A stretch of 35,227 bases of DNA from a virus (lineage: Duplodnaviria > Heunggongvirae > Uroviricota > Caudoviricetes): IMG/VR virus record IMGVR_UViG_2778261451_000005. One strand, given 5' to 3'. Below are positions 3,901-28,182 of this stretch, piece after piece. The notes below the pieces were generated by a model. It was given only the letters and a program-made list of their open reading frames with translations, had not been told where the DNA came from and searched no databases. The position numbers and the translations under genes were made by a program. How positions within the stretch are numbered: the first letter of the stretch is position 1; each line of letters opens with the position of its first letter.

Positions 3901-4172
3901 GTATTCGTATTGAAATTGGCGAACGTTATGTCGTTACCAGTGACAGCTTTCAGTTTATTCTCCACGAGAAAAAGAGAGCTGAAAGCGGTAAAAATGCCGG
4001 TCAGGAATGGCTGGCGGTAGTTGGTTATTACCCGAAATTAAGCCAGCTCGTTTCCGGCCTGATGCATCACGATATTCTGACCGGAAGCGCAAAATCTTTT
4101 GCTGATTTAAACGCGCAGGTTGAGCAACTCAGCAAGCGTTGTTCAGAGGCTTTTGGCTCACATGGCCGTTAA
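3897..4172 (+). CDS. Early hypothetical protein (P2 orf83 position)
   Basis: 91 aa; ATG overlaps upstream stop; ends inside the start of A. Confidence 0.6.
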   Translation: MSIRIEIGERYVVTSDSFQFILHEKKRAESGKNAGQEWLAVVGYYPKLSQLVSGLMHHDILTGSAKSFADLNAQVEQLSKRCSEAFGSHGR

Positions 4173-6447
4173 AGCCTCCGGGCATTTTGTCCCTCCGTCA
4201 GCATTTGCCGCAGGCACCGGTAAGACGTTTACCGGTGCTTATGCATGGAACGCGCCACGCGAGGCCGTCGGGCGCGAAAGACCCCTTACACGTGACGAGA
4301 TGCGTCAGGTGCAAGGTGTTTTATCCACGATTAACCGCCTGCCTTACTTTTTGCGCTCGCTGTTTACTTCACGCTATGACTACATCCGGCGCAATAAAAG
4401 CCCGGTGCACGGGTTTTATTTCCTCACATCCACTTTTCAGCGTCGTTTATGGCCGCGCATTGAGCGTGTGAATCAGCGCCATGAAATGAACACCGACGCG
4501 TCGTTACTGTTTCTGGCAGAGCGTGAGCACTATGCGCGCCTGCCGGGAATGAATGACAAGGAGCTGAAAAAGTTTGCCGCCCGTATCTCATCGCAGCTTT
4601 TCATAATGTATGAGGAACTCTGCGATGCCTGGGTGGATGCGCATGGCGAGAAAGAATCGCTGTTTACGGATGAGGCGCAGGCGCATCTGTATGGTCATGT
4701 TGCTGGCGCTGCACGTGCTTTCAATATTTCCCCGCTCTACTGGAAAAAATACCGTAAAGGACAGATGACCACGAGGCAGGCATATTCTGCCATTGCCCGT
4801 CTGTTTAACGATGAGTGGTGGACTCATCAGCTTAAAGGCCAGCGTATGCGCTGGCATGAGGCGTTACTGATTGCTGTCGGGGAGGTCAATAAAGACCGTT
4901 CTCCTTATGCCAGTAAACATGCCATTCGTGATGTGCGTGCACGCCGCCAGGCAAATCTGGAATTTCTTAAATCGTGTGACCTTGAAAACAGGGAAACCGG
5001 CGAGCGCATCGACCTTATCAGTAAGGTGATGGGCAGTATTTCTAATCCTGAAATTCGCCGGATGGAGCTGATGAACACCATTGCCGGTATTGAGCGTTAC
5101 GCCGCAGCAGAGGGTGATGTGGGGATGTTTATCACGCTGACCGCGCCGTCAAAGTATCACCCGACACGTCAGGTCAGAAAAGGCGAAAGTAAAACCGTCC
5201 AGCTAAATCACGGCTGGAACGATGAGGCATTTAATCCAAAGGATGCGCAGCGTTATCTCTGCCGTATCTGGAGCCTGATGCGCACGGCATTCAAGGATAA
5301 TGATTTACAGGTCTACGGTTTGCGTGTCGTCGAGCCACACCACGACGGAACGCCGCACTGGCATATGATGCTTTTTTGTAATCCGCGCCAGCGTAACCAG
5401 ATTATCGAAATCATGCGTCGCTATGCGCTCAAAGAGGATGGCGACGAAAGAGGAGCCGCGCGAAACCGTTTTCAGGCAAAACACCTTAATCGGGGCGGTG
5501 CTGCGGGGTATATCGCGAAATACATCTCAAAAAACATCGACGGCTATGCACTGGATGGTCAGCTCGATAACGATACCGGCAGACCTCTGAAAGATACTGC
5601 CGCGGCTGTTACTGCATGGGCGTCAACGTGGCGCATCCCGCAATTTAAAACGGTTGGTCTGCCGACAATGGGGGCTTACCGTGAACTACGCAAATTGCCG
5701 CGCGGTGTCAGCATTGCTGATGAGTTTGACGAGCGCGTCGAGGCTGCACGCGCCGCCGCAGACAGTGGTGATTTTGCGTTGTATATCAGCGCGCAGGGTG
5801 GGGCAAATGTCCCGCGCGATTGTCAGACTGTCAGGGTCGCCCGTAGCCCGTCGGATGACGTTAACGAGTACGAGGAAGAGGTCGAGAGAGTGGTCGGCAT
5901 TTACGCGCCGCATCTCGGCGCGCGTCATATTCATATCACCAGAACGACGGACTGGCGCATTGTGCCGAAAGCTCCGGTCGTTGAGCCTTTGACTTTAAAA
6001 AGCGGCATCGCCGCGCCTCGGAGTCCTGTCAATAACTGTGGAAAGCTCACCGGTGGTGATACTTCGTTACCGGCTCCCACACCTTCTGAGCACGCCGCAG
6101 CAGTGCTAAATCTGGTTGATGACGGTGTTATCGAATGGAATGACCCGGAGGTTGTGAGGACGCTCAGGGGTGCATTAAAACACGGCCTGAAAACACCAAA
6201 TCGTCAGCAAAGAAATGGAAGCCCGTTAAAACCACATGAAATAGCACCGTCGGCCAGACTGACCCGGTCGGAACGATTGCAAATTACCCGTATCCGCGTT
6301 GACCTCGCTCAGAACGGTATCAGGCCGCAACGATGGGAGCTTGAGGCGCTGGCGCGTGGCGCGACAGTAAATTATGACGGGAAAAAATTCACGTATCCGG
6401 TCGCTGATGAGTGGTCGGGATTCTCAACAGTAATGGAGTGGACATGA
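4162..6447 (+). CDS. A: Rolling-circle replication initiator (nickase) A
   Basis: 761 aa from ATG at 4162 (ORF-track start 4120 is TTG); large conserved P2 A homologue by size and position. Confidence 0.88.
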   Translation: MAVKASGHFVPPSAFAAGTGKTFTGAYAWNAPREAVGRERPLTRDEMRQVQGVLSTINRLPYFLRSLFTSRYDYIRRNKSPVHGFYFLTSTFQRRLWPRIERVNQRHEMNTDASLLFLAEREHYARLPGMNDKELKKFAARISSQLFIMYEELCDAWVDAHGEKESLFTDEAQAHLYGHVAGAARAFNISPLYWKKYRKGQMTTRQAYSAIARLFNDEWWTHQLKGQRMRWHEALLIAVGEVNKDRSPYASKHAIRDVRARRQANLEFLKSCDLENRETGERIDLISKVMGSISNPEIRRMELMNTIAGIERYAAAEGDVGMFITLTAPSKYHPTRQVRKGESKTVQLNHGWNDEAFNPKDAQRYLCRIWSLMRTAFKDNDLQVYGLRVVEPHHDGTPHWHMMLFCNPRQRNQIIEIMRRYALKEDGDERGAARNRFQAKHLNRGGAAGYIAKYISKNIDGYALDGQLDNDTGRPLKDTAAAVTAWASTWRIPQFKTVGLPTMGAYRELRKLPRGVSIADEFDERVEAARAAADSGDFALYISAQGGANVPRDCQTVRVARSPSDDVNEYEEEVERVVGIYAPHLGARHIHITRTTDWRIVPKAPVVEPLTLKSGIAAPRSPVNNCGKLTGGDTSLPAPTPSEHAAAVLNLVDDGVIEWNDPEVVRTLRGALKHGLKTPNRQQRNGSPLKPHEIAPSARLTRSERLQITRIRVDLAQNGIRPQRWELEALARGATVNYDGKKFTYPVADEWSGFSTVMEWT

Positions 6448-6899
6448 TGGCAAAAATTCACGAGGTAAAGCTGCACGCAAAATATTTCGACCTTGTGCTG
6501 GAAGGAAAGAAACGCGCAGAGTTTCGGAAAAATGACCGTAATTATGAGCGCGGGGACACGTTGATTTTGCATGAATGGGGGCAGGGTGTGTATACGGGGC
6601 GAAAGGTTGAAGCCCGGATAACAGATGTTACTGACCTGTCAGACTGGCTGGAAGATTATGTCTTGCTAAGTATTGAGCTGCTTAATACAGGCGCATATGA
6701 GATTGTGAACTGGAAAGAACTTAGTGAGCGTGGTCTGTTATTCAGAATTAATCATGAAATTATGCATAAGCTCGGCCTTGCTGTTATGTATGAACCAGAG
6801 ACGGGAATGTCTGGCGGGGCAATGGTTGCCACGGATGGAGCATGGAACTATTCAGATGAACAGATGGAGCGTGCACAGCAAAACGGGTGGCTTGGATAA
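6444..6899 (+). CDS. Hypothetical protein with ASCH/PUA-like (DUF3850-type) N-terminal region (P2 orf91 position)
   Basis: ATG overlaps A stop (ATGA); N-terminus KIHEVKLHAKYFDLVLEGKKRAEFRKNDRNYERGDTLILHEW resembles the DUF3850/ASCH pattern (from memory). Confidence 0.6.
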   Translation: MMAKIHEVKLHAKYFDLVLEGKKRAEFRKNDRNYERGDTLILHEWGQGVYTGRKVEARITDVTDLSDWLEDYVLLSIELLNTGAYEIVNWKELSERGLLFRINHEIMHKLGLAVMYEPETGMSGGAMVATDGAWNYSDEQMERAQQNGWLG

Positions 6900-7334: not shown

Positions 7335-8066
7335 ATGGATACTATAATCGCTTTTCTATCACTCGCTTTTTTTGTTGCTTTTTTCATCGGGTTAATCAAG
7401 CCATCACTGGTGCGAATGCCAAGCCGCAAACGTGCAAGTGCGGTTTATCTCGGAGGAGGTTTTGTATTGAGCATAATTGGTTCAATACTCTATCCAACAG
7501 AAAAAAGCCAGCCAGTTGCTAAAACTGAAACATCAACCGTTGTAGAACACCAAGTCCAAAAAACATTCGAATATGGTGAAAAAACACTCAAGGAATATCG
7601 GAGCGAGCCAAAGAAAACTCGACACGATATTGTGAATAGTTACATTGACTTTAAGAAAGTTCCAGTCACCGCATCAGATGCATTTTATGCCTGCATGAGT
7701 GAGTATACATTTACCAAAGATGATGAGTTGAAACTCGGTGATGTTCTTGGGTGGTGCTTTAATGATTATGAAAATGACCCGAGTTCACTAAATAATAAAA
7801 TCAATCTTGATACATTTCAGAGTAATTTTAGTGGTTGGGATGGTTCTTATCGTCCATTGGAAAAACTAATTAAAGATAATATGAACGATGATTCATCTTA
7901 TAAACATGTATCAACGGTATATCATTTAGTTTTGAATAAAGACCCGCACGCCATTGTGAAAACGACGTTTCGCGGCACTAATGCTTATGGTGGCATGGTC
8001 AAACAGACTGTAGCAGCGCGAGTTGACGTGCGAACGGGTGAGATCGATTCAATACTCGACAATTAA
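7335..8066 (+). CDS. Cargo gene 1: membrane-anchored protein of unknown function (two N-terminal TM helices plus ~190-aa domain)
   Basis: ATG at 7335 with AAGGAT SD (ORF-track start 7311 is GTG); hydrophobic segments TIIAFLSLAFFVAFFIGLI and AVYLGGGFVLSIIGSILY separated by a basic loop; AT-rich; occupies the P2 tin/old position. Confidence 0.7.
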   Translation: MDTIIAFLSLAFFVAFFIGLIKPSLVRMPSRKRASAVYLGGGFVLSIIGSILYPTEKSQPVAKTETSTVVEHQVQKTFEYGEKTLKEYRSEPKKTRHDIVNSYIDFKKVPVTASDAFYACMSEYTFTKDDELKLGDVLGWCFNDYENDPSSLNNKINLDTFQSNFSGWDGSYRPLEKLIKDNMNDDSSYKHVSTVYHLVLNKDPHAIVKTTFRGTNAYGGMVKQTVAARVDVRTGEIDSILDN

Positions 8067-8085
8067 ATAATATAGTGACAGCTCC

Positions 8086-8143
8086 GTCAGTGATGAAACT
8101 TGCTTTTAGTCTTGGCGGGGTTGAGCAATGAGTCTTGCAAGGT
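8086..8143. repeat. Copy 2 of the ~55-bp repeated element, directly upstream of cargo gene 2
   Basis: cagtgatgaaacttgcttttagtcttggcggggttgagcaatgagtcttgcaagg aligns with 7115..7170. Confidence 0.7.
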
Positions 8144-21670: not shown

Positions 21671-23776
21671 ATGAGCACAAAATTCAAAACCGTTATCACC
21701 ACTGCCGGTGCAGCAAAGCTGGCAGCGGCAACCGCACCGGGAGGGCGGAAGGTCAACATTACCACGATGGCCGTCGGGGATGGCGGTGGTAAATTGCCTG
21801 TCCCGGATGCCGGACAGACCGGGCTTATCCATGAAGTCTGGCGACATGCGCTGAACAAAATCACCCTGGACAAACGAAACAGTAATTATATTATCGCAGA
21901 GCTGGTTATTCCGCCGGAGGTGGGCGGTTTCTGGATGCGTGAGCTTGGCCTGTACGATGATGCGGGAACGCTAATTGCCGTGGCGAACATGGCTGAAAGT
22001 TATAAACCCGCTCTTGCCGAAGGCTCAGGGCGTTCGCAGACCTGCCGCATGGTCATCATCGTCAGCAGTGTGGCCTCAGTGGAGCTGACCATTGACACCA
22101 CAACGGTGATGGCAACGCAGGATTACGTTGATGACAAAATTGCAGAGCATGAACAGTCACGACGTCACCCGGACGCCTCGCTGACCGCAAAAGGTTTTAC
22201 TCAGTTAAGCAGTGCAACCAACAGCGCGTCTGAAACACTGGCTGCAACGCCGAAAGCGGTAAAGGCCGCGTATGACCTTGCTAACGGGAAATATACTGCG
22301 CAGGATGCCACCACAGCGCGAAAAGGTCTTGTCCAACTCAGTAGTGCCACCAACAGCACGTCTGAAACGCTCGCCGCAACACCAAAAGCGGTAAAGGCCG
22401 CGTATGACCTTGCTAACGGGAAATACACTGCACAGGACGCCACCACAGCGCGAAAAGGTCTTGTTCAGCTCAGTAGCGCCACCAACAGCGATTCTGAAAC
22501 GCTGGCCGCAACGCCAAAGGCGGTAAAGGTCGCGTATGACCTTGCTAACGGGAAATACACTGCACAGGACGCCACCACAGCGAGAAAAGGCCTTGTCCAG
22601 CTCAGTAGCGCCACCAACAGTGATTCTGAAACGCTTGCGGCAACGCCAAAGGCGGTAAAGGTCGCGTATGACCTTGCTAACGGGAAATACACTGCACAGG
22701 ATGCCACCACAGCGCGAAAAGGGCTTGTTCAGCTCAGTAGCGCCACCAACAGTGATTCTGAAACACTGGCCGCAACACCAAAAGCGGTGAAGTCTGCCTA
22801 TGACAATGCTGAAAAACGTCTTCAGAAAGATCAGAACGGTGCGGATATTCCTGATAAAAGATTATTCCTGCGCAATATTGGAGCAACAAATTCAACAACC
22901 ATGTCTTTTAGTGGTGGTACAGGATGGTTCAGGCTGGCAACTGTAACCATGCCCCAGGCCAGTTCCGTGGTTTACATAAGCCTGATTGGTGGTGCCGGAT
23001 ATAATGTTAACTCCCCTATGCAGGCTGGTATATCTGAACTTGTTCTTCGTGCGGGAAATGGAAATCCAAAAGGTCTTACTGGTGCGTTATGGCGACGGAC
23101 ATCGGTTGGATTTACTAATTTTGCATGGGTGAATACATCCGGTGATACCTATGATGTTTATGTTGAAATAGGTAATTACGCCACAGGTGTTAATATTCAG
23201 TGGGATTATACCAGTAACGCCAGCGTAACGATTCATACATCACCAACTTATACAGCGAATAAACCAACAGGCCTGACAGATGGAACTGTATATGTAATTT
23301 ACAGTTCGTACATTAAACCGACTGCTGCTGATGTTGGGGCGTTATCATTATCTGGTGGTCAATTGAATGGTGCTCTGGGTATAGGAACATCCAGTGCTCT
23401 TGGCGGTAATTCGATTGTTTTGGGTGATAATGACACGGGCTTTAAACAAAATGGTGATGGTAATCTGGATGTTTATGCTAATAGCGTCCATGTTATGCGC
23501 TTTGTCTCCGGAAGCGTTCAAAGTAATAAAACCATAAATATTACGGGGCGTGTTAATCCCTCGGATTACGGTAACTTTGATTCCCGCTATGTGAGAGATG
23601 TCAGACTTGGCACACGTGTTGTCCAGACCATGCAGAAAGGGGTGATGTATGAGAAAGCAGGGCACGTAATTACCGGGCTTGGTATTGTCGGTGAAGTCGA
23701 TGGTGATGACCCCGCAGTATTCAGACCAATACAAAAATACATCAATGGCACATGGTATAACGTCGCACAGGTGTAA
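21671..23776 (+). CDS. H: Tail fiber protein H with expanded internal repeats
   Basis: 701 aa; conserved N-terminus; about five tandem 44-aa repeats (…QLSSATNSxSETLAATPKAVKxAYDLANGKYTAQDATTARKG…); AT-richer C-terminal tip. Confidence 0.9.
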   Translation: MSTKFKTVITTAGAAKLAAATAPGGRKVNITTMAVGDGGGKLPVPDAGQTGLIHEVWRHALNKITLDKRNSNYIIAELVIPPEVGGFWMRELGLYDDAGTLIAVANMAESYKPALAEGSGRSQTCRMVIIVSSVASVELTIDTTTVMATQDYVDDKIAEHEQSRRHPDASLTAKGFTQLSSATNSASETLAATPKAVKAAYDLANGKYTAQDATTARKGLVQLSSATNSTSETLAATPKAVKAAYDLANGKYTAQDATTARKGLVQLSSATNSDSETLAATPKAVKVAYDLANGKYTAQDATTARKGLVQLSSATNSDSETLAATPKAVKVAYDLANGKYTAQDATTARKGLVQLSSATNSDSETLAATPKAVKSAYDNAEKRLQKDQNGADIPDKRLFLRNIGATNSTTMSFSGGTGWFRLATVTMPQASSVVYISLIGGAGYNVNSPMQAGISELVLRAGNGNPKGLTGALWRRTSVGFTNFAWVNTSGDTYDVYVEIGNYATGVNIQWDYTSNASVTIHTSPTYTANKPTGLTDGTVYVIYSSYIKPTAADVGALSLSGGQLNGALGIGTSSALGGNSIVLGDNDTGFKQNGDGNLDVYANSVHVMRFVSGSVQSNKTINITGRVNPSDYGNFDSRYVRDVRLGTRVVQTMQKGVMYEKAGHVITGLGIVGEVDGDDPAVFRPIQKYINGTWYNVAQV
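22189..22800 (+). repeat. About 4.6 tandem copies of a 132-bp coding repeat inside H
   Basis: Period 132 bp, nearly identical units; explains the spurious antisense ORFs 22201..22446 and 22465..22710. Confidence 0.85.
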
Positions 23777-23779
23777 TTT

Positions 23780-24307
23780 ATGCAGCATTTAAAAAATATT
23801 ACTGCGGGTAATCCAAAAACTGTTGCCCAATATCAACTGACAAAAAATTTTGATGTTATCTGGTTATGGTCCGAAGAGGGAAAAAACTGGTATGAGGAAG
23901 TAAGTAATTTTCAGGAAGACACGATAAAGATTGTTTACGATGAGAATAATATAATTGTCGGCATCACCAGAGATGCTTCAACGCTCAACCCTGAAGGTTT
24001 TAGCGTTGTCGAGGTTCCTGATATTACCGCCAACCGACGTGCTGATGACTCAGGTAAATGGATGTTTAAGGATGGTGCCGTGATTAAGCGGATTTATACG
24101 GCAGACGAACAGCTGCAACTGGCGGAATTACAGAAGTCAGCTTTGCTTTCCGAAGCTGAAACTATCATTCAGCCACTGGAACGCTCTGTCAGACTGAATA
24201 TGGCAACAGATGAGGAGCGTAGCCGACTGGAAGCATGGGAACGCTACAGTGTTCTGGTCAGCCGTGTGGATCCTGCAAATCCTGAATGGCCGGAAATGCC
24301 GCAATAA
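23780..24307 (+). CDS. G: Tail fiber assembly chaperone G
   Basis: 175 aa; follows H as in P2. Confidence 0.88.
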
Positions 24308-24341
24308 GTTGTATGATCTCTGGAGTGAGCTAACGTATCTA

Positions 24342-24383
24342 TAGCACAGAGTAAAGCCTAATCTGACAGTCTGCTCTGTGCTA
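24342..24383. repeat. Hairpin (10-bp stem tagcacagag / ctctgtgcta, 22-nt loop) carrying the left inverted-repeat site
   Basis: Read directly; no U-tract, so not a canonical terminator. Confidence 0.55.
24360..24375. repeat. Site L: 16-bp element aatctgacagtctgct, perfect inverted repeat of 26793..26808
   Basis: Exact reverse-complement match; candidate recombinase recognition site. Confidence 0.7.
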
Positions 24384-24485
24384 GGAGCGGACTGACCTGC
24401 TTCCCGATGATTAATACACAGCTATGCTAGTAATGTCCGTAGATCGCTGTGTGTTGCATCCATCGGTTGAACTCACAGTCCAAAC

Positions 24486-24506
24486 CAGACTGTCAGCTTT
24501 GATTAG
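24486..24506. repeat. Site M: cagactgtcagctttgattag, direct copy of site R (26795..26814) and inverted relative to site L
   Basis: 20 of 21 positions match site R, with one indel. Confidence 0.65.
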
Positions 24507-24659
24507 ATTCTACCTACTCAACCTGTCAGATAAGGTCTGAGCTAATACATCTAATATATGGCTTCGTGCAGGGGACGGCTATCGCGAACGTTAGGCCAGG
24601 TATCTGAATACGCACATTCACTTGGTTGTACTTCTTGCACTGATCTGCTATCCCGCACA

Positions 24660-24696
24660 GCTATTTATAGGTAATCTTCAGTGTATAATCTGCCAA
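24660..24696 (+). promoter_or_regulatory. Putative sigma70 promoter for the 280-aa cargo gene
   Basis: Perfect TATAAT at 24684..24689 with a weak -35; AGGAG SD at 24717..24721 before ATG 24728. Confidence 0.45.
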
Positions 24697-24727
24697 CTTA
24701 TGGAAGCTTGTACAACAGGAGAAATAT

Positions 24728-25570
24728 ATGAAAAAAGAATTGTTTGGACGTTGCCCGTTTGATCTTGACGAAGATGTAAAAAAAATAGCCGCGATAAATA
24801 AATATATCCATGCAAAATTTGAGGAGCATAAAAATAAAATAGACAACCTAAAGGGTGTGGAACAAAAATTGATGGTCTTACAGTACTTTAATGTACTGAA
24901 TGAACTTAGTAATCAGGCTATCTCTTCTTTGAATATAGGAGCCTTTTCAGCATCGGAAGTATTAGCTAGGGTTATAATAGAACAGGCTGCCAATCAATTT
25001 TATATAGCAATAGATGATGGCGAAAATGCACAAGCATTACTCAAGGCTAGTAAGAAATTAGTTCATAGTAATGGAAAACGGTGGCTGGAGTGTTTAAAAT
25101 CCAAAGGAATGACTAATCCAGCAGCAAATGAAAGGATTCGCATGGGAAAAGAACTAACTGATCTATTTAATAGATTGTGGCCAAATACACCTGAATATCC
25201 AGGAACCAGAAAACTTTTTGAATTAATTGGCTGGGAAACACACTATCATGCCCATTACGTTCCCCTTTGTGATTCAATACATACATTCTCTGATGATATG
25301 GTAAATATAGTATCTCTATATAATGCAATCCAAAGTGATGAAAATACTGCTATCGAATTCATTCTTGCAGTTAAACAAGAAAATAAACGGCTGGCAATTT
25401 ATAATTTTGTAATTGCTACGGCCCTTCGGTGTGAGGCCTTAGTAAATGTATTTAACTCTTTAGGTTATCAGGATATTATAACAGAAATGACACCAACAAT
25501 AGATACAGTCAACCAGACTATAATTCGATATGATGATTTTGATCATTCCAGAATTGATGATTGTCAATAA
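24728..25570 (+). CDS. Cargo gene: 280-aa soluble protein of unknown function (candidate defence/exclusion effector)
   Basis: ATG with AGGAG SD; AT-rich; no TM segments or motifs I recognise; in the P2 Z/fun position. Confidence 0.75.
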   Translation: MKKELFGRCPFDLDEDVKKIAAINKYIHAKFEEHKNKIDNLKGVEQKLMVLQYFNVLNELSNQAISSLNIGAFSASEVLARVIIEQAANQFYIAIDDGENAQALLKASKKLVHSNGKRWLECLKSKGMTNPAANERIRMGKELTDLFNRLWPNTPEYPGTRKLFELIGWETHYHAHYVPLCDSIHTFSDDMVNIVSLYNAIQSDENTAIEFILAVKQENKRLAIYNFVIATALRCEALVNVFNSLGYQDIITEMTPTIDTVNQTIIRYDDFDHSRIDDCQ

Positions 25571-25676
25571 TTAATTGACAGAATACGTACATGCGCAACA
25601 ACTAGTGATAGTTGACTTATTTTCGCTCTTGAGAGACAACCATACTCAAATCTCCCACATTGCAGGAGATTTGAAT

Positions 25677-26261
25677 ATGAAAACGTCACCGTGGAATAAA
25701 GACCGTACCATCGGTCAAAAAAGGCCACTTCAGATATCTCATATCTGGGGGATCCGGATTAGACTTGAGTTGGAAGGTAAAACACGCGATCTAGCTCTGT
25801 TCAACATGGCTTTGGACACTAAGCTACGGGGCTGTGATTTGGTCAAACTCAAAGTATCAGATGCTGCATATGGCAGTTCTGTCTCAAGCAGAGCAACGGT
25901 GTTGCAACAGAAAACCGGCAGCCCTGTCCAATTTGAGATAACCAAAGGGACAAGGGAAGCGGTTACTGCATTGATAAAGCTCGGCAACTGGCATAGTAAA
26001 GGCTTCCTGTTCCGCTCTCGGGTCGGAACTAACCACCATATATCAACCCGGCAATACAACCGAATTTTTCATGGGTGGGTAGAAAAGCTTGGTCTCGAAG
26101 ATTCGCTGTACAGCACACATTCCATGAGAAGAACAAAACCTTACTTAATCTACAAGAAAACCAAGAGTCTCCGGGTGATCCAACTTCTGTTGGGCCATAA
26201 GAAACTGGAAAGCACAGTCCGTTATTTGGGCATTGAAGTCGATATAGAAGGTCTCTTTTAA
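25677..26261 (+). CDS. Small tyrosine recombinase, catalytic domain only (FimB/FimE-like size)
   Basis: 194 aa from ATG at 25677 with AGGAG SD (ORF-track start 25575 rejected); catalytic signature R (…TKLRGCDL…), HxxR (…THSMRRT…), LLGHxxxxxTxxY (…LLGHKKLESTVRY…); lacks an N-terminal core-binding domain. Confidence 0.75.
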   Translation: MKTSPWNKDRTIGQKRPLQISHIWGIRIRLELEGKTRDLALFNMALDTKLRGCDLVKLKVSDAAYGSSVSSRATVLQQKTGSPVQFEITKGTREAVTALIKLGNWHSKGFLFRSRVGTNHHISTRQYNRIFHGWVEKLGLEDSLYSTHSMRRTKPYLIYKKTKSLRVIQLLLGHKKLESTVRYLGIEVDIEGLF

Positions 26262-26283
26262 GTTATGGGGGCTGATTTTATAT

Positions 26284-26661
26284 TCAATAGCGTATGCTCA
26301 TCGAAGAAATAAACTCATAAAATGTAAAGACAGCCAGCAAAAACATACAGATAAAGATAAGGGAAATAGCACACTTAACTAAGGGCTGAACCCCCCGAGG
26401 TGTTCCCCATGGTTTAGACATTTGGGTTATAACCCAAATAAATAAGGCCACAAAACAGCAAACACCAGCCAATCCGAGCAGAGATATTATGACAACTCCA
26501 AACAGATTTCCAACATCTAGTTTATCTGTTTTTGCAACTAGGGTTAACAAACCAGCAATAATAGTTGCAATCGATATTCCCGCAATGGTTGTGAGATCGG
26601 CGATAACAGCCAGTTTTTCTTTAGTATTTCCTTGAGTAAAAACCTCTAAAATTGATTTCAT
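26284..26661 (-). CDS. Cargo gene: 125-aa membrane protein (three predicted TM helices), convergent with the recombinase
   Basis: ATG at 26661 with AGGTGG SD; TATAAT-like -10 elements upstream on minus strand; hydrophobic segments throughout; AT-rich. Confidence 0.65.
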   Translation of the reverse strand: MKSILEVFTQGNTKEKLAVIADLTTIAGISIATIIAGLLTLVAKTDKLDVGNLFGVVIISLLGLAGVCCFVALFIWVITQMSKPWGTPRGVQPLVKCAISLIFICMFLLAVFTFYEFISSMSIRY

Positions 26662-26792
26662 GGAAATAACCACCTACTATCGATTATATTCAGGAGCTTT
26701 TTATTATAACGATATCAGATAGATAAGGACATTGTAATATTTTGGATGATTTAAACTTGCTTTTGTAACTCTAATGTCCACTTTTCGCTCAA

Positions 26793-26814
26793 AGCAGACT
26801 GTCAGATTTGATAG
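26793..26814. repeat. Site R: agcagactgtcagatttgatag (inverted partner of site L, direct partner of site M)
   Basis: Exact 16-bp reverse-complement match to 24360..24375; lies between the island and FI. Confidence 0.7.
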
Positions 26815-26867
26815 CATTTGGGCTATGTAAATTGTCAGGCGGAAAATGAGTGAGTACAAATCAGGAC

Positions 26868-26895
26868 AGGCGGGCGAATTGCCCGCCTTTTCTTT
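26868..26895 (+). terminator. Rho-independent terminator upstream of FI
   Basis: aggcgggc / gcccgcct stem, 5-nt loop, followed by TTTTCTTT. Confidence 0.7.
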
Positions 26896-26991
26896 ATCTG
26901 TTGTTTCATCCACTGACCAGTCAGGTCAAATAGCGTCTCATGCACTGCCCAACAGAAAATAGTTGCACCCATTAACCACGGAGTTAAACGG
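26896..26991 (+). promoter_or_regulatory. Region expected to contain late promoter P_F
   Basis: Position upstream of FI as in P2; specific Ogr dyad not confidently located. Confidence 0.4.
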
Positions 26992-28182
26992 ATGAGTGAC
27001 TATCATCATGGCGTGCAGGTGCTGGAGATTAACGACGGCACCCGCGTCATTTCCACCGTATCCACTGCCATTGTCGGCATGGTCTGCACGGCCAGCGATG
27101 CGGATGCGGAAACCTTCCCCCTCAATAAACCGGTGCTGATTACCAATGTGCAAAGCGCAATTGCAAAGGCCGGTAAAAAAGGCACGCTGGCGGCATCGTT
27201 GCAGGCCATCGCTGACCAGTCAAAACCGGTCACCGTTGTCGTGCGCGTGGAAGACGGCACCGGTGATGACGAGGAAACGAAACTCGCGCAGACCGTTTTC
27301 AATATCATCGGCACCACCGACGAAAACGGTCAGTACACCGGACTAAAAGCCCTGCTGGCGGCGGAGTCGGTAACCGGTGTTAAACCGCGTATTCTCGGTG
27401 TGCCGGGACTGGATACCAAAGAGGTGGCTGTTGCACTGGCATCCGTCTGTCAGAAGCTGCGCGCTTTCGGATATATCAGCGCATGGGGCTGTAAGACCAT
27501 TTCCGAGGTGAAAGCCTACCGCCAGAATTTCAGCCAGCGTGAGCTGATGGTCATCTGGCCGGATTTCCTCGCATGGGATACGGTCACCAGTACCACCGCC
27601 ACCGCGTATGCCACCGCCCGTGCGCTGGGTCTGCGCGCTAAAATCGACCAGGAGCAGGGCTGGCATAAAACGCTGTCCAACGTCGGGGTAAACGGTGTTA
27701 CCGGCATCAGCGCGTCCGTATTCTGGGATTTGCAGGAGTCCGGCACCGATGCTGACCTGCTTAACGAGTCAGGCGTCACAACGCTGATTCGCCGTGACGG
27801 TTTCCGCTTCTGGGGTAACCGTACCTGCTCTGATGACCCGCTGTTCCTCTTTGAAAACTACACCCGCACCGCGCAGGTGCTGGCCGACACGATGGCTGAG
27901 GCGCACATGTGGGCGGTGGACAAGCCCATCACCGCAACGCTGATTCGCGACATCGTTGACGGCATCAATGCCAAATTCCGAGAGCTGAAAACAAACGGCT
28001 ATATCGTGGATGCGACCTGCTGGTTCAGCGAAGAATCCAACGATGCGGAAACCCTCAAGGCCGGAAAACTGTATATCGACTACGACTATACCCCGGTGCC
28101 TCCTCTCGAAAACCTGACCCTGCGCCAGCGTATTACCGATAAATACCTGGCAAATCTGGTCACCTCGGTTAACAGCAATTAA
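26992..28182 (+). CDS. FI: Tail sheath protein FI
   Basis: 396 aa; P2 size and order. Confidence 0.93.
   Translation: MSDYHHGVQVLEINDGTRVISTVSTAIVGMVCTASDADAETFPLNKPVLITNVQSAIAKAGKKGTLAASLQAIADQSKPVTVVVRVEDGTGDDEETKLAQTVFNIIGTTDENGQYTGLKALLAAESVTGVKPRILGVPGLDTKEVAVALASVCQKLRAFGYISAWGCKTISEVKAYRQNFSQRELMVIWPDFLAWDTVTSTTATAYATARALGLRAKIDQEQGWHKTLSNVGVNGVTGISASVFWDLQESGTDADLLNESGVTTLIRRDGFRFWGNRTCSDDPLFLFENYTRTAQVLADTMAEAHMWAVDKPITATLIRDIVDGINAKFRELKTNGYIVDATCWFSEESNDAETLKAGKLYIDYDYTPVPPLENLTLRQRITDKYLANLVTSVNSN

Follow-up and report, generated by a model that had tools for sequence, protein, structure and literature searches.

Paired palindromic sites bound the Z/fun cargo slot of P2-like prophages and recur in cassette arrays associated with a small tyrosine recombinase

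We analyzed a viral DNA stretch of 35 227 nt (IMG/VR record IMGVR_UViG_2778261451_000005; the whole stretch is referred to as the window), which represents a P2-like prophage, and focused on the region between the genes G and FI. A preliminary description had noticed there a perfect 16-bp inverted repeat flanking an island of 2.4 kb that encodes a tyrosine recombinase. We found that the two repeat arms, termed the left (L) and right (R) site, are conserved boundary sites of the cargo slot of P2-like phages and are not specific for this island. The same two sites bound gene cassettes in lambdoid prophages and other islands, where the cassettes are organized in arrays and a recombinase gene of the family present in the island sits between an R and an L site, and individual cassettes are shared between phages with unrelated backbones. 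From these observations we consider it probable that L and R are the sites at which the recombinase drives the integration, excision and exchange of cassettes, following a logic similar to that of integrons.

Boundary sites of the P2-like cargo slot

The left 16-mer aatctgacagtctgct (24360-24375) is the exact reverse complement of agcagactgtcagatt (26793-26808), as had been described, and the inverted repeat reaches 33 nt with 82% complementarity (24360-24392 and 26776-26808). The chance expectation for an exact 16-mer inverted match, which had been left to be computed, is 0.14 pairs for the entire window and 0.024 pairs within a distance of 3 kb; the repeat is far beyond chance. Allowing at most one mismatch, the 11-mer CAGACTGTCAG occurs five times in the window compared to 0.31 expected occurrences, and none of 100 shuffled sequences reached this number. 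The third copy named in the preliminary description, M (24486-24506), is present as well, direct to R and inverted to L, and all three copies are intergenic and located between real genes. The perfect match of 16 out of 16 nt between L and R is partly a local accident, because most P2-like phages show a fixed mismatch at this place (GTCCGCT on the left, AGCAGAC on the right) and the left arm of the window is the minority variant GTCTGCT among them. The hairpin that had been proposed around the left site can be drawn with a 10-bp stem (24342-24351 with 24374-24383) and a 22-nt loop, but a more stable alternative exists: at minimum energy the DNA is folded with the dyad of the site itself paired (24367-24376 with 24385-24394), and stem variants of the hairpin are uncompensated among P2-like phages. 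A further exact copy of CAGACTGTCAG, the fourth, lies at 5824-5834, distant from the hotspot and without adjacent half-sites, and is probably due to chance.

For the comparison with related phages we surveyed 80 P2-like loci from IMG/VR. Homology between the window and P2 ends exactly at 24392 and resumes at 26777, the rest of the region being collinear, and P2 itself carries diverged copies of both arms around fun(Z). This Z/fun region is recognised as the second defence and cargo hotspot of P2 (PMC9519451; bioRxiv 10.1101/2024.10.15.618418). Both arms were observed in 52 of the 80 loci, with 42 distinct cargo starts and cargos of 0.85-4.1 kb, and all cargos are inserted after ...CTCTGTGCCArrAGCGGAC and before TCCGCTyyTCGCTCAAAGCAGAC.... 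The comparison of junctions in related phages, as suggested beforehand, showed that the cargo boundaries coincide with L and R across dozens of cargos, i.e. the variable DNA between G and FI has one insertion point and many unrelated cargos, including arrays of two to three cassettes. The idea that the repeats are special to the island could not be maintained. P2 and dozens of P2-like phages carry both arms without a recombinase gene in the slot, and a backbone motif in recombinase-free P2-like phages was an observation that the preliminary description had named as speaking against its interpretation. In some P2-like phages, referred to as 'empty', the stop codon of G plus 2 nt is joined directly to a terminator-like hairpin (window 26868-26888), therefore the unit 24308-26865 as a whole represents an insertion compared to these phages. 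A cargo-free ancestral palindrome was not found in two pattern scans of IMG/VR, in which the single match was an unrelated chance hit. A third class of P2-like phages (L043, 6342-6941, and about 15 others, among them L035, L040 and L047) has no arms and carries a gene for a serine DNA invertase (Hin/Gin-like) immediately upstream of FI, which presumably serves tail-fibre switching; in our sample the arm-bearing and the invertase architectures look mutually exclusive.

Each arm is composed of a core site, a 24-bp palindrome of the form GTCCGCT-N10-AGCGGAC, and 9 nt of outer sequence, and the 16-mer noticed originally corresponds to the backbone-side half-site together with these 9 nt. L begins with the backbone-side half-site and ends with the cargo-side half-site, the cargo starting after 24392, while R, preceded by an AATG tip (26772-26775), begins with the cargo-side half-site and ends with the backbone-side half-site. 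The cargo-side half-sites differ from cargo to cargo, whereas the backbone-side half-sites are conserved and backbone-specific. The two sites are oppositely oriented and their centres are distinct and fixed (yTGTGCCArr in L, yyTCGCTCAy in R). Inverted half-sites around an asymmetric centre are the generic layout of a tyrosine-recombinase core site, and in this respect the anatomy expected for the repeats was confirmed. Among 38 distinct arm pairs from P2-like phages the L-type was always found on the left and the R-type always on the right, with four fixed mismatches between them. The arms are 77.6% complementary in register compared to 28-40% when slid out of register, but the in-register value is no better than that of column shuffles (77.9%), so that no covariation is present. 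Because the pairing equals that of the shuffles and the four mismatches are fixed, the arms are not a selected stem; they are therefore two distinct conserved sequences which were never swapped by inversion. The site sequence is conserved including the hairpin loops, which suggests that the sites may be recognised as double-stranded sequence. Among known RNA families the only match reached 19.7 bits against a cut-off of 50.

Cassette arrays and the recombinase family

Matrices for the L and R sites were trained on the P2-like arms and used with a working threshold of 15 bits; in the control, 4.8 Mb of shuffled sequence, L reached 14 bits or more four times and R three times. We observed the same L and R sites at the borders of cassettes in lambdoid prophages and other islands. 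These cassettes are ∼0.4-7 kb long and often consist of single defence genes. Clustering of the 108 L-to-R intervals gave 64 cassette clusters (median length 1.5 kb), and the encoded systems include PD-T7-1, bSEFIR and PDC-S15. The arrays have the form L-cargo-R, L-cargo-R. More than 20 R-L junctions were found in non-P2 loci, all of them co-oriented with the recombinase gene and with a distance of 47-51 nt from the start of the R core to the start of the L core. The canonical junction reads AAyk-(GTCCGCT yyTCGCTCAyA GCGGAC)-18 nt-(GTCCGCT yTGTGCCArrA GCGGAC)-rTT and holds two core sites, each a complete palindrome, with centres that are reverse complements to about 70%; the junction forms two hairpins when folded (z=-3.5). 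The recombinase gene replaces the 18-nt linker in a single junction of each array. Some loci (among them L009 with copies at 5995-6600 and ∼7500-8110, L122 and L132) contain two diverged recombinase copies within one array, each followed by its own L site. In the Qin prophage of E. coli K-12 (L203) an L site at 3986 and an R site at 4969 surround ydfV-flxA beside relBE-hokD, without a recombinase gene, and the relBE/hokD neighbourhood may be a remnant of a cassette array.

The recombinase of the island is 86-93% identical to a canonical family of proteins with 200-202 aa, and reading the motif from the translation suggests that the catalytic residues R51, H148, R151, H174 and Y183 are present. 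An R-type site (AAyk/TCCrCTyyTCGCTC) is located ∼50 nt upstream of the canonical gene for 200-203 aa in the non-P2 loci, and a hairpin and an L-type site (CTGTGCCArrAGCGGAmrTT/) follow directly past its stop codon. The canonical module is ordered R site-leader-gene-hairpin-L site, and the DNA outside both tips is unrelated. The connection between the repeats and the recombinase of the island, which had been drawn in the preliminary description, was thereby substantiated at the level of the family, whose gene elsewhere sits between an R and an L site. In the island itself, homology to the canonical module begins near 25620 and breaks after 26243, the C-terminal tail of the family and the downstream L site having been lost. 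This recombinase gene alone (25620-26243) recurs with 87-91% DNA identity in many non-P2 prophages beside unrelated genes. Queries based on the module matched ∼870-935 of 5426 complete E. coli genomes (about one sixth), and every listed module-only match begins and ends at the two site tips.

The family comprises about 8000 database matches, with identities of 75-93% across Enterobacterales, Proteus/Providencia, Pantoea and marine Gammaproteobacteria and of ∼60% in Pseudomonas and Betaproteobacteria. A solved structure for the recombinase was not found by sequence. Its assignment to well-known groups was rejected in each case: the NCBIfam integron integrase models gave 18 bits compared to cut-offs of 265 and 435, the FimB/FimE-type invertase model NF007371 gave 22.9 bits compared to a cut-off of 222, an Xer identity was rejected by curated models, and the IntKX group is a different family composed of integrases of conjugative elements. 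The palindrome at 25641-25679, which covers the start of the recombinase gene, is conserved across the family including the Proteus and Pseudomonas versions and may act as a hairpin for translational control or as an additional binding site. In isolated P2-like phages (Yersinia vB_YpM_22/50 and Escherichia vB_EcoM-720R8) we recognized only a module relic of 74 nt with a partial R site and the leader palindrome; among the sequenced phage isolates of the collection none carries the full module. In Idiomarina (L116/L117, 8001-8612) the recombinase gene and its L site follow gcvP and border an L-to-R interval of 6.9 kb, which carries a phosphoethanolamine-transferase/two-component cluster. Cassette cargo thus extends beyond phage defence and beyond prophages.

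For two cassettes we observed copies with the same ends in a P2-like slot on the one hand and in a non-P2 array on the other. The cassette of the P2-like locus L089, encoding PD-T7-1, corresponds to that of L202 and L011 over 1917 of 1917 nt with 99.2% identity, and the cassette of L049 corresponds to that of the Erwinia locus L127 over 984 of 984 nt with 92.5% identity. The homology of these shared cassettes runs from the backbone-side half-site of L to the backbone-side half-site of R. A natural insertion/deletion can be seen by comparing L202 and L011. In L011 two R sites flank the recombinase gene, an L site and cargo, while in L202 the recombinase gene, this L site and the cargo downstream are missing, so that the event includes neighbouring cargo. 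The single R site of L202, GTCCACTC-CTCGCTCA-AAGCGGAC, is an exact hybrid of the two R sites of L011. Such a hybrid would be the expected product of a tyrosine-recombinase crossover in the site centre, and on the comparative evidence of this one event it fits a crossover inside the 10 nt.

Proposed cassette exchange and alternative explanations

In the proposed mechanism the recombinase, acting in cis or in trans, would join like sites (R with R, L with L), the crossover taking place within the 10-nt centre. A circular cassette would be excised or integrated when two directly repeated R sites, or two directly repeated L sites, recombine, and one event at each site type would replace the cargo of a slot. 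A reaction between L and R would be disfavoured because their centres differ, so that a slot would be neither inverted nor emptied. Going further, we put forward tentatively that temperate phages of Enterobacterales (P2-like and lambdoid) and islands share an undescribed integron-like platform, in which a trans-acting recombinase of 200 aa may move defence cassettes as circles between unrelated prophages within one cell.

Several points weigh against a site-specific exchange by the recombinase. That the enzyme catalyses the exchanges is a step which we infer. The 10-nt centre exceeds the overlap of tyrosine recombinases, which typically measures 6-8 bp, and the division into half-sites and overlap is putative; in addition, the backbone-side half-site is poor in the L site beside the recombinase gene. 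A recombinase gene is missing from most P2-like slots, therefore action in trans must be assumed. For relatives with ∼60% identity the strict palindromic pattern was not enriched (5 matches compared to 3 in shuffles), and the motif and inverted-repeat statistics of the distant relatives are weak, with scores weakly above the shuffles; for this reason the array claim is limited to Enterobacterales and close relatives. No variant of the island among 36 genomes shows a site-mediated event. Finally, the hybrid R site of L202 could also stem from recombination through short homology, the right flank being only 90.7% identical.

This last point leads to the explanation that the arms are merely short conserved patches of homology. 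General or Red/RecET-type recombination through the 24-37 bp arms and the flanking genes would then swap the cassettes, with the recombinase as a passenger. Since G and FI are conserved, no special mechanism is required for exchange among P2-like phages, an identical stretch of 8-16 nt is shared in the hybrid R site of L202 and could support recombination through short homology, and the large share of slots without a recombinase points in the same direction. Homology does not explain, however, why unrelated phage backbones contain and conserve the patches, why the patches form palindromes with fixed and oriented centres, why R and L are paired at a distance of 18 nt, and why one gene family is located exactly between R and L with the listed module-only matches ending at the tips. 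Overall we consider it unlikely.

One can also regard R-recombinase-L as a transposon-like element with terminal inverted repeats, in which case the junctions without a gene would be miniature derivatives, the P2 arms solo ends and the 'cargo' simply the DNA between insertions. The gene is indeed bracketed by inverted tips (GTCCGCTyyT... and ...ArrAGCGGAC in Enterobacterales, inverted repeats of ∼24 bp in Pseudomonas), and the unit is discrete, as each of the module-only E. coli matches listed spans from tip to tip. In P2-like phages, on the other hand, it is the DNA between the tips that varies while the backbone stays constant, which is the reverse of a transposon. The module-free locus keeps a complete hybrid R site instead of a clean target, the deleted unit takes neighbouring cargo along, and a target-site duplication is not evident at the boundaries, which makes a transposon an improbable explanation.

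The preliminary description had considered a switch, in which the recombinase of the island inverts the 2.4-kb module by recombination of L with R or a segment of 110 bp by recombination of L with M, and deletes the module by recombination of M with R. An intact tyrosine recombinase gene between the repeats, the inverted orientation of L and R and the direct orientation of M and R are compatible with this idea. The genomes, however, gave a different picture: all 36 complete E. coli genomes with the island are collinear, the four differences between L and R are fixed without any swapping in 38 phages, and the arms occur in P2 and many phages that have no slot recombinase. An inverted-junction query found the canonical module inverted in 0 of ∼181 genomes of the same context, inversion-type flank pairs were not found (0), and a hin-like invertible switch was rejected on these grounds. 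The switch is largely refuted at the level of assembled genomes and appears very unlikely to us. Regarding the deletion, direct recombination of R with R fits the natural insertion/deletion between L202 and L011, but a deletion variant between M and R was not found among the genomes with the island. M is degenerate, lacks the cargo-side half-site, stays under 7 bits with the site matrices and is probably inert; it is best read as a decayed R-type relic of an earlier event. The flank of this putative relic matches L017 (2997-3050), of the type that follows the R site of L017, and M travels with the DUF5677 cassette, being present in the copy of a lambdoid prophage (L003).

Extremely improbable, and rejected by us as an RNA processing stem, is a pairing of the two arms in a late transcript from G through the cargo to the terminator, with the stem being cut to excise the cargo RNA or insulating the late genes: the location of the unit between the stop codon of G and the terminator-like hairpin makes co-transcription possible and the arms are ∼78% complementary in register, but covariation is lacking, the four fixed mismatches are never compensated, an annotated P2 terminator lies between the arms, and the sites in arrays form local hairpins with conserved loop sequences.

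Relation to known systems and composition of the island

We rate the system as belonging to the site-specific gene-cassette kind, like integrons and pdif modules. It shares with integrons the co-oriented arrays of mostly single-gene cassettes with defence genes as cargo, the imperfect palindromic junctions of ∼75-80 nt with AAy...rTT at their outer edges, a dedicated tyrosine recombinase gene attached to the array and, as far as the sequences suggest, the exit and entry of cassettes as circles. IntI-type integrases have ∼320 aa with an IntI-specific insertion, and attC is recombined as a folded single strand recognised by its structure. In contrast, the recombinase described here has 194-203 aa, consists of a catalytic domain alone and falls far short of the IntI models in score, its gene is located inside a junction and not at the head of the array beside attI, the junction consists of two sequence-conserved core sites (R and L) instead of one structure-recognised attC, and the arrays reside in prophage hotspots.

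In the pdif modules of Acinetobacter, cargo lies between inverted 28-bp dif-like sites (XerC-6 bp-XerD) served by XerCD of the host. These modules resemble the cassettes in being discrete, in having two inverted short palindromic tyrosine-recombinase sites and in showing identical ends in many replicon contexts, but differ in that a dedicated small recombinase gene accompanies the arrays reported here. By eye, L and R are unlike the dif/cer consensus. In engineered exchange with heterospecific lox or FRT sites, two sites of one recombinase likewise differ in the centre and only like sites are exchanged, excision or inversion between unlike ones being blocked. That is a laboratory design, whereas the present system would be natural and the incompatibility of L and R is suggested by the fixed centres and the absence of inversions. 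Invertible switches (Hin/Gin/Cin; FimB/FimE with fimS) have in common with the island the inverted repeats flanking a segment near tail-fibre genes and, for FimB/FimE, a recombinase of ∼200 aa; as in hin, the recombinase gene lies between inverted sites. Unlike these switches, no inverted form was seen in 36 plus 181 genomes and the match to the tyrosine invertase model is negligible, while the invertase-bearing P2-like phages differ by having a serine invertase at this position and no arms.

The closest known counterpart in location is the P2 Z/fun region itself, the same locus between G and FI, with fun(Z) in the same slot between diverged arms. Work by Nilsson et al. from 2004, by its title said to concern site-specific recombination in variable loci of P2, may anticipate the boundary sequences on the P2 side. 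In the literature searched, outside of which Nilsson et al. 2004 and Odegrip et al. 2006 lie, we found no description of the boundary sites or of the recombinase. A 2026 survey of P2/P4 hotspots notes of their recombination processes that these 'still need to be elucidated' (PMC13586616). The turnover of defence systems in phage hotspots is very fast and confined to exact positions, and cassette exchange by the recombinase, if true, would supply the missing mechanism for this precise and rapid swapping. A site pair, a candidate enzyme and natural recombinants make the question of hotspot exchange experimentally tractable. Furthermore, new single-gene defence systems could be harvested from prophages by the L/R signature, which delimits the cassettes, and if L and R are truly incompatible the system would represent a natural tool for cassette exchange.

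The features of the island and its surroundings are listed in Table 1.

Table 1. Position of the slot, its boundary sites and its cargo in the window
Feature	Position	Strand	Evidence or remark
Tail fibre assembly gene (P2 gene G), left backbone gene	23780..24307	+	Pfam Caudo_TAP E=7e-34; collinear with P2 G
Left flank of slot unit	24308..24359		Kept in arm-bearing P2-like phages, absent from 'empty' phages
Hairpin of the preliminary description, alternative fold	24342..24383	+	Read from sequence
Outer 9 nt AATCTGACA, start of the left 16-mer	24360..24368		Near-invariant in 38 P2-like phages; mirrors TGTCAGATT at 26800-26808
L core site GTCTGCT-CTGTGCTAGG-AGCGGAC	24369..24392	+	Matrix score 26 bits
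Putative degenerate R-type relic containing M, inside cargo	24431..24556	+	71% direct repeat of 26790-26838 (M + 28 nt downstream)
DUF5677 protein, cargo	24728..25570	+	Pfam DUF5677 E=5e-10; phrog_4167; no PADLOC match
Truncated R-type site TCGCTCTTGAGAGAC upstream of recombinase gene, cargo-side half-site lost	25623..25637	+
15-9-15 palindrome over ribosome-binding site and start codon of the recombinase gene	25641..25679	+	Fold -9.9 kcal/mol, z=-6.0
Tyrosine recombinase, 194 aa, catalytic domain only	25677..26261	+	Pfam Phage_integrase (PF00589) E=9e-18
Predicted membrane protein, 129 aa, cargo	26284..26673	-	Open reading frame; phrog_4155 E=1e-84; no Pfam or PADLOC match
R core site GTCCACT-TTTCGCTCAA-AGCAGAC	26776..26799	+	Matrix score 35 bits
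Outer 9 nt TGTCAGATT, end of the right 16-mer	26800..26808
Right flank of slot unit	26809..26865		Absent from 'empty' P2-like phages
Terminator-like hairpin and T run	26868..26896	+	9-bp stem, 7 G-C pairs
Tail sheath gene (P2 gene FI), right backbone gene	26992..28182	+	Pfam Phage_sheath domains; P2 annotation

On our best reading the slot holds a composite cargo of the DUF5677 gene, a family recombinase with degraded flanking sites and the membrane protein gene. None of the three proteins matched a known defence family in PADLOC. The leader, the DUF5677 gene and the recombinase gene were also found in a lambdoid prophage with 89% identity, the homology starting exactly at 24392. In E. coli IHE3034 (L002) a deletion of ∼1 kb (25782-26827) removes the 3' part of the recombinase gene, the open reading frame of the membrane protein and the R site, while DUF5677 is kept; its break points appear to share the 5 nt GTAAA and are not located at the L and R sites. 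A truncated left end in CP173533 (L204) was rejected as a variant, as it is just the insertion of an IS21-family element, ISEc12, at window ∼24535, where it directly follows the M region's second CTGTCAG; in another strain (hit H16, GPEC128-620) the island contains an IS3-family element. Further upstream, the tail fibre gene H (window 21671-23776) contains at ∼22200-22800 about five tandem copies of a 44-aa unit (...TAQDATTARKGLVQLSSATNS-SETLAATPKAVK-AYDLANGKY) with a period of 132 nt, the copy number of which may vary between phages.

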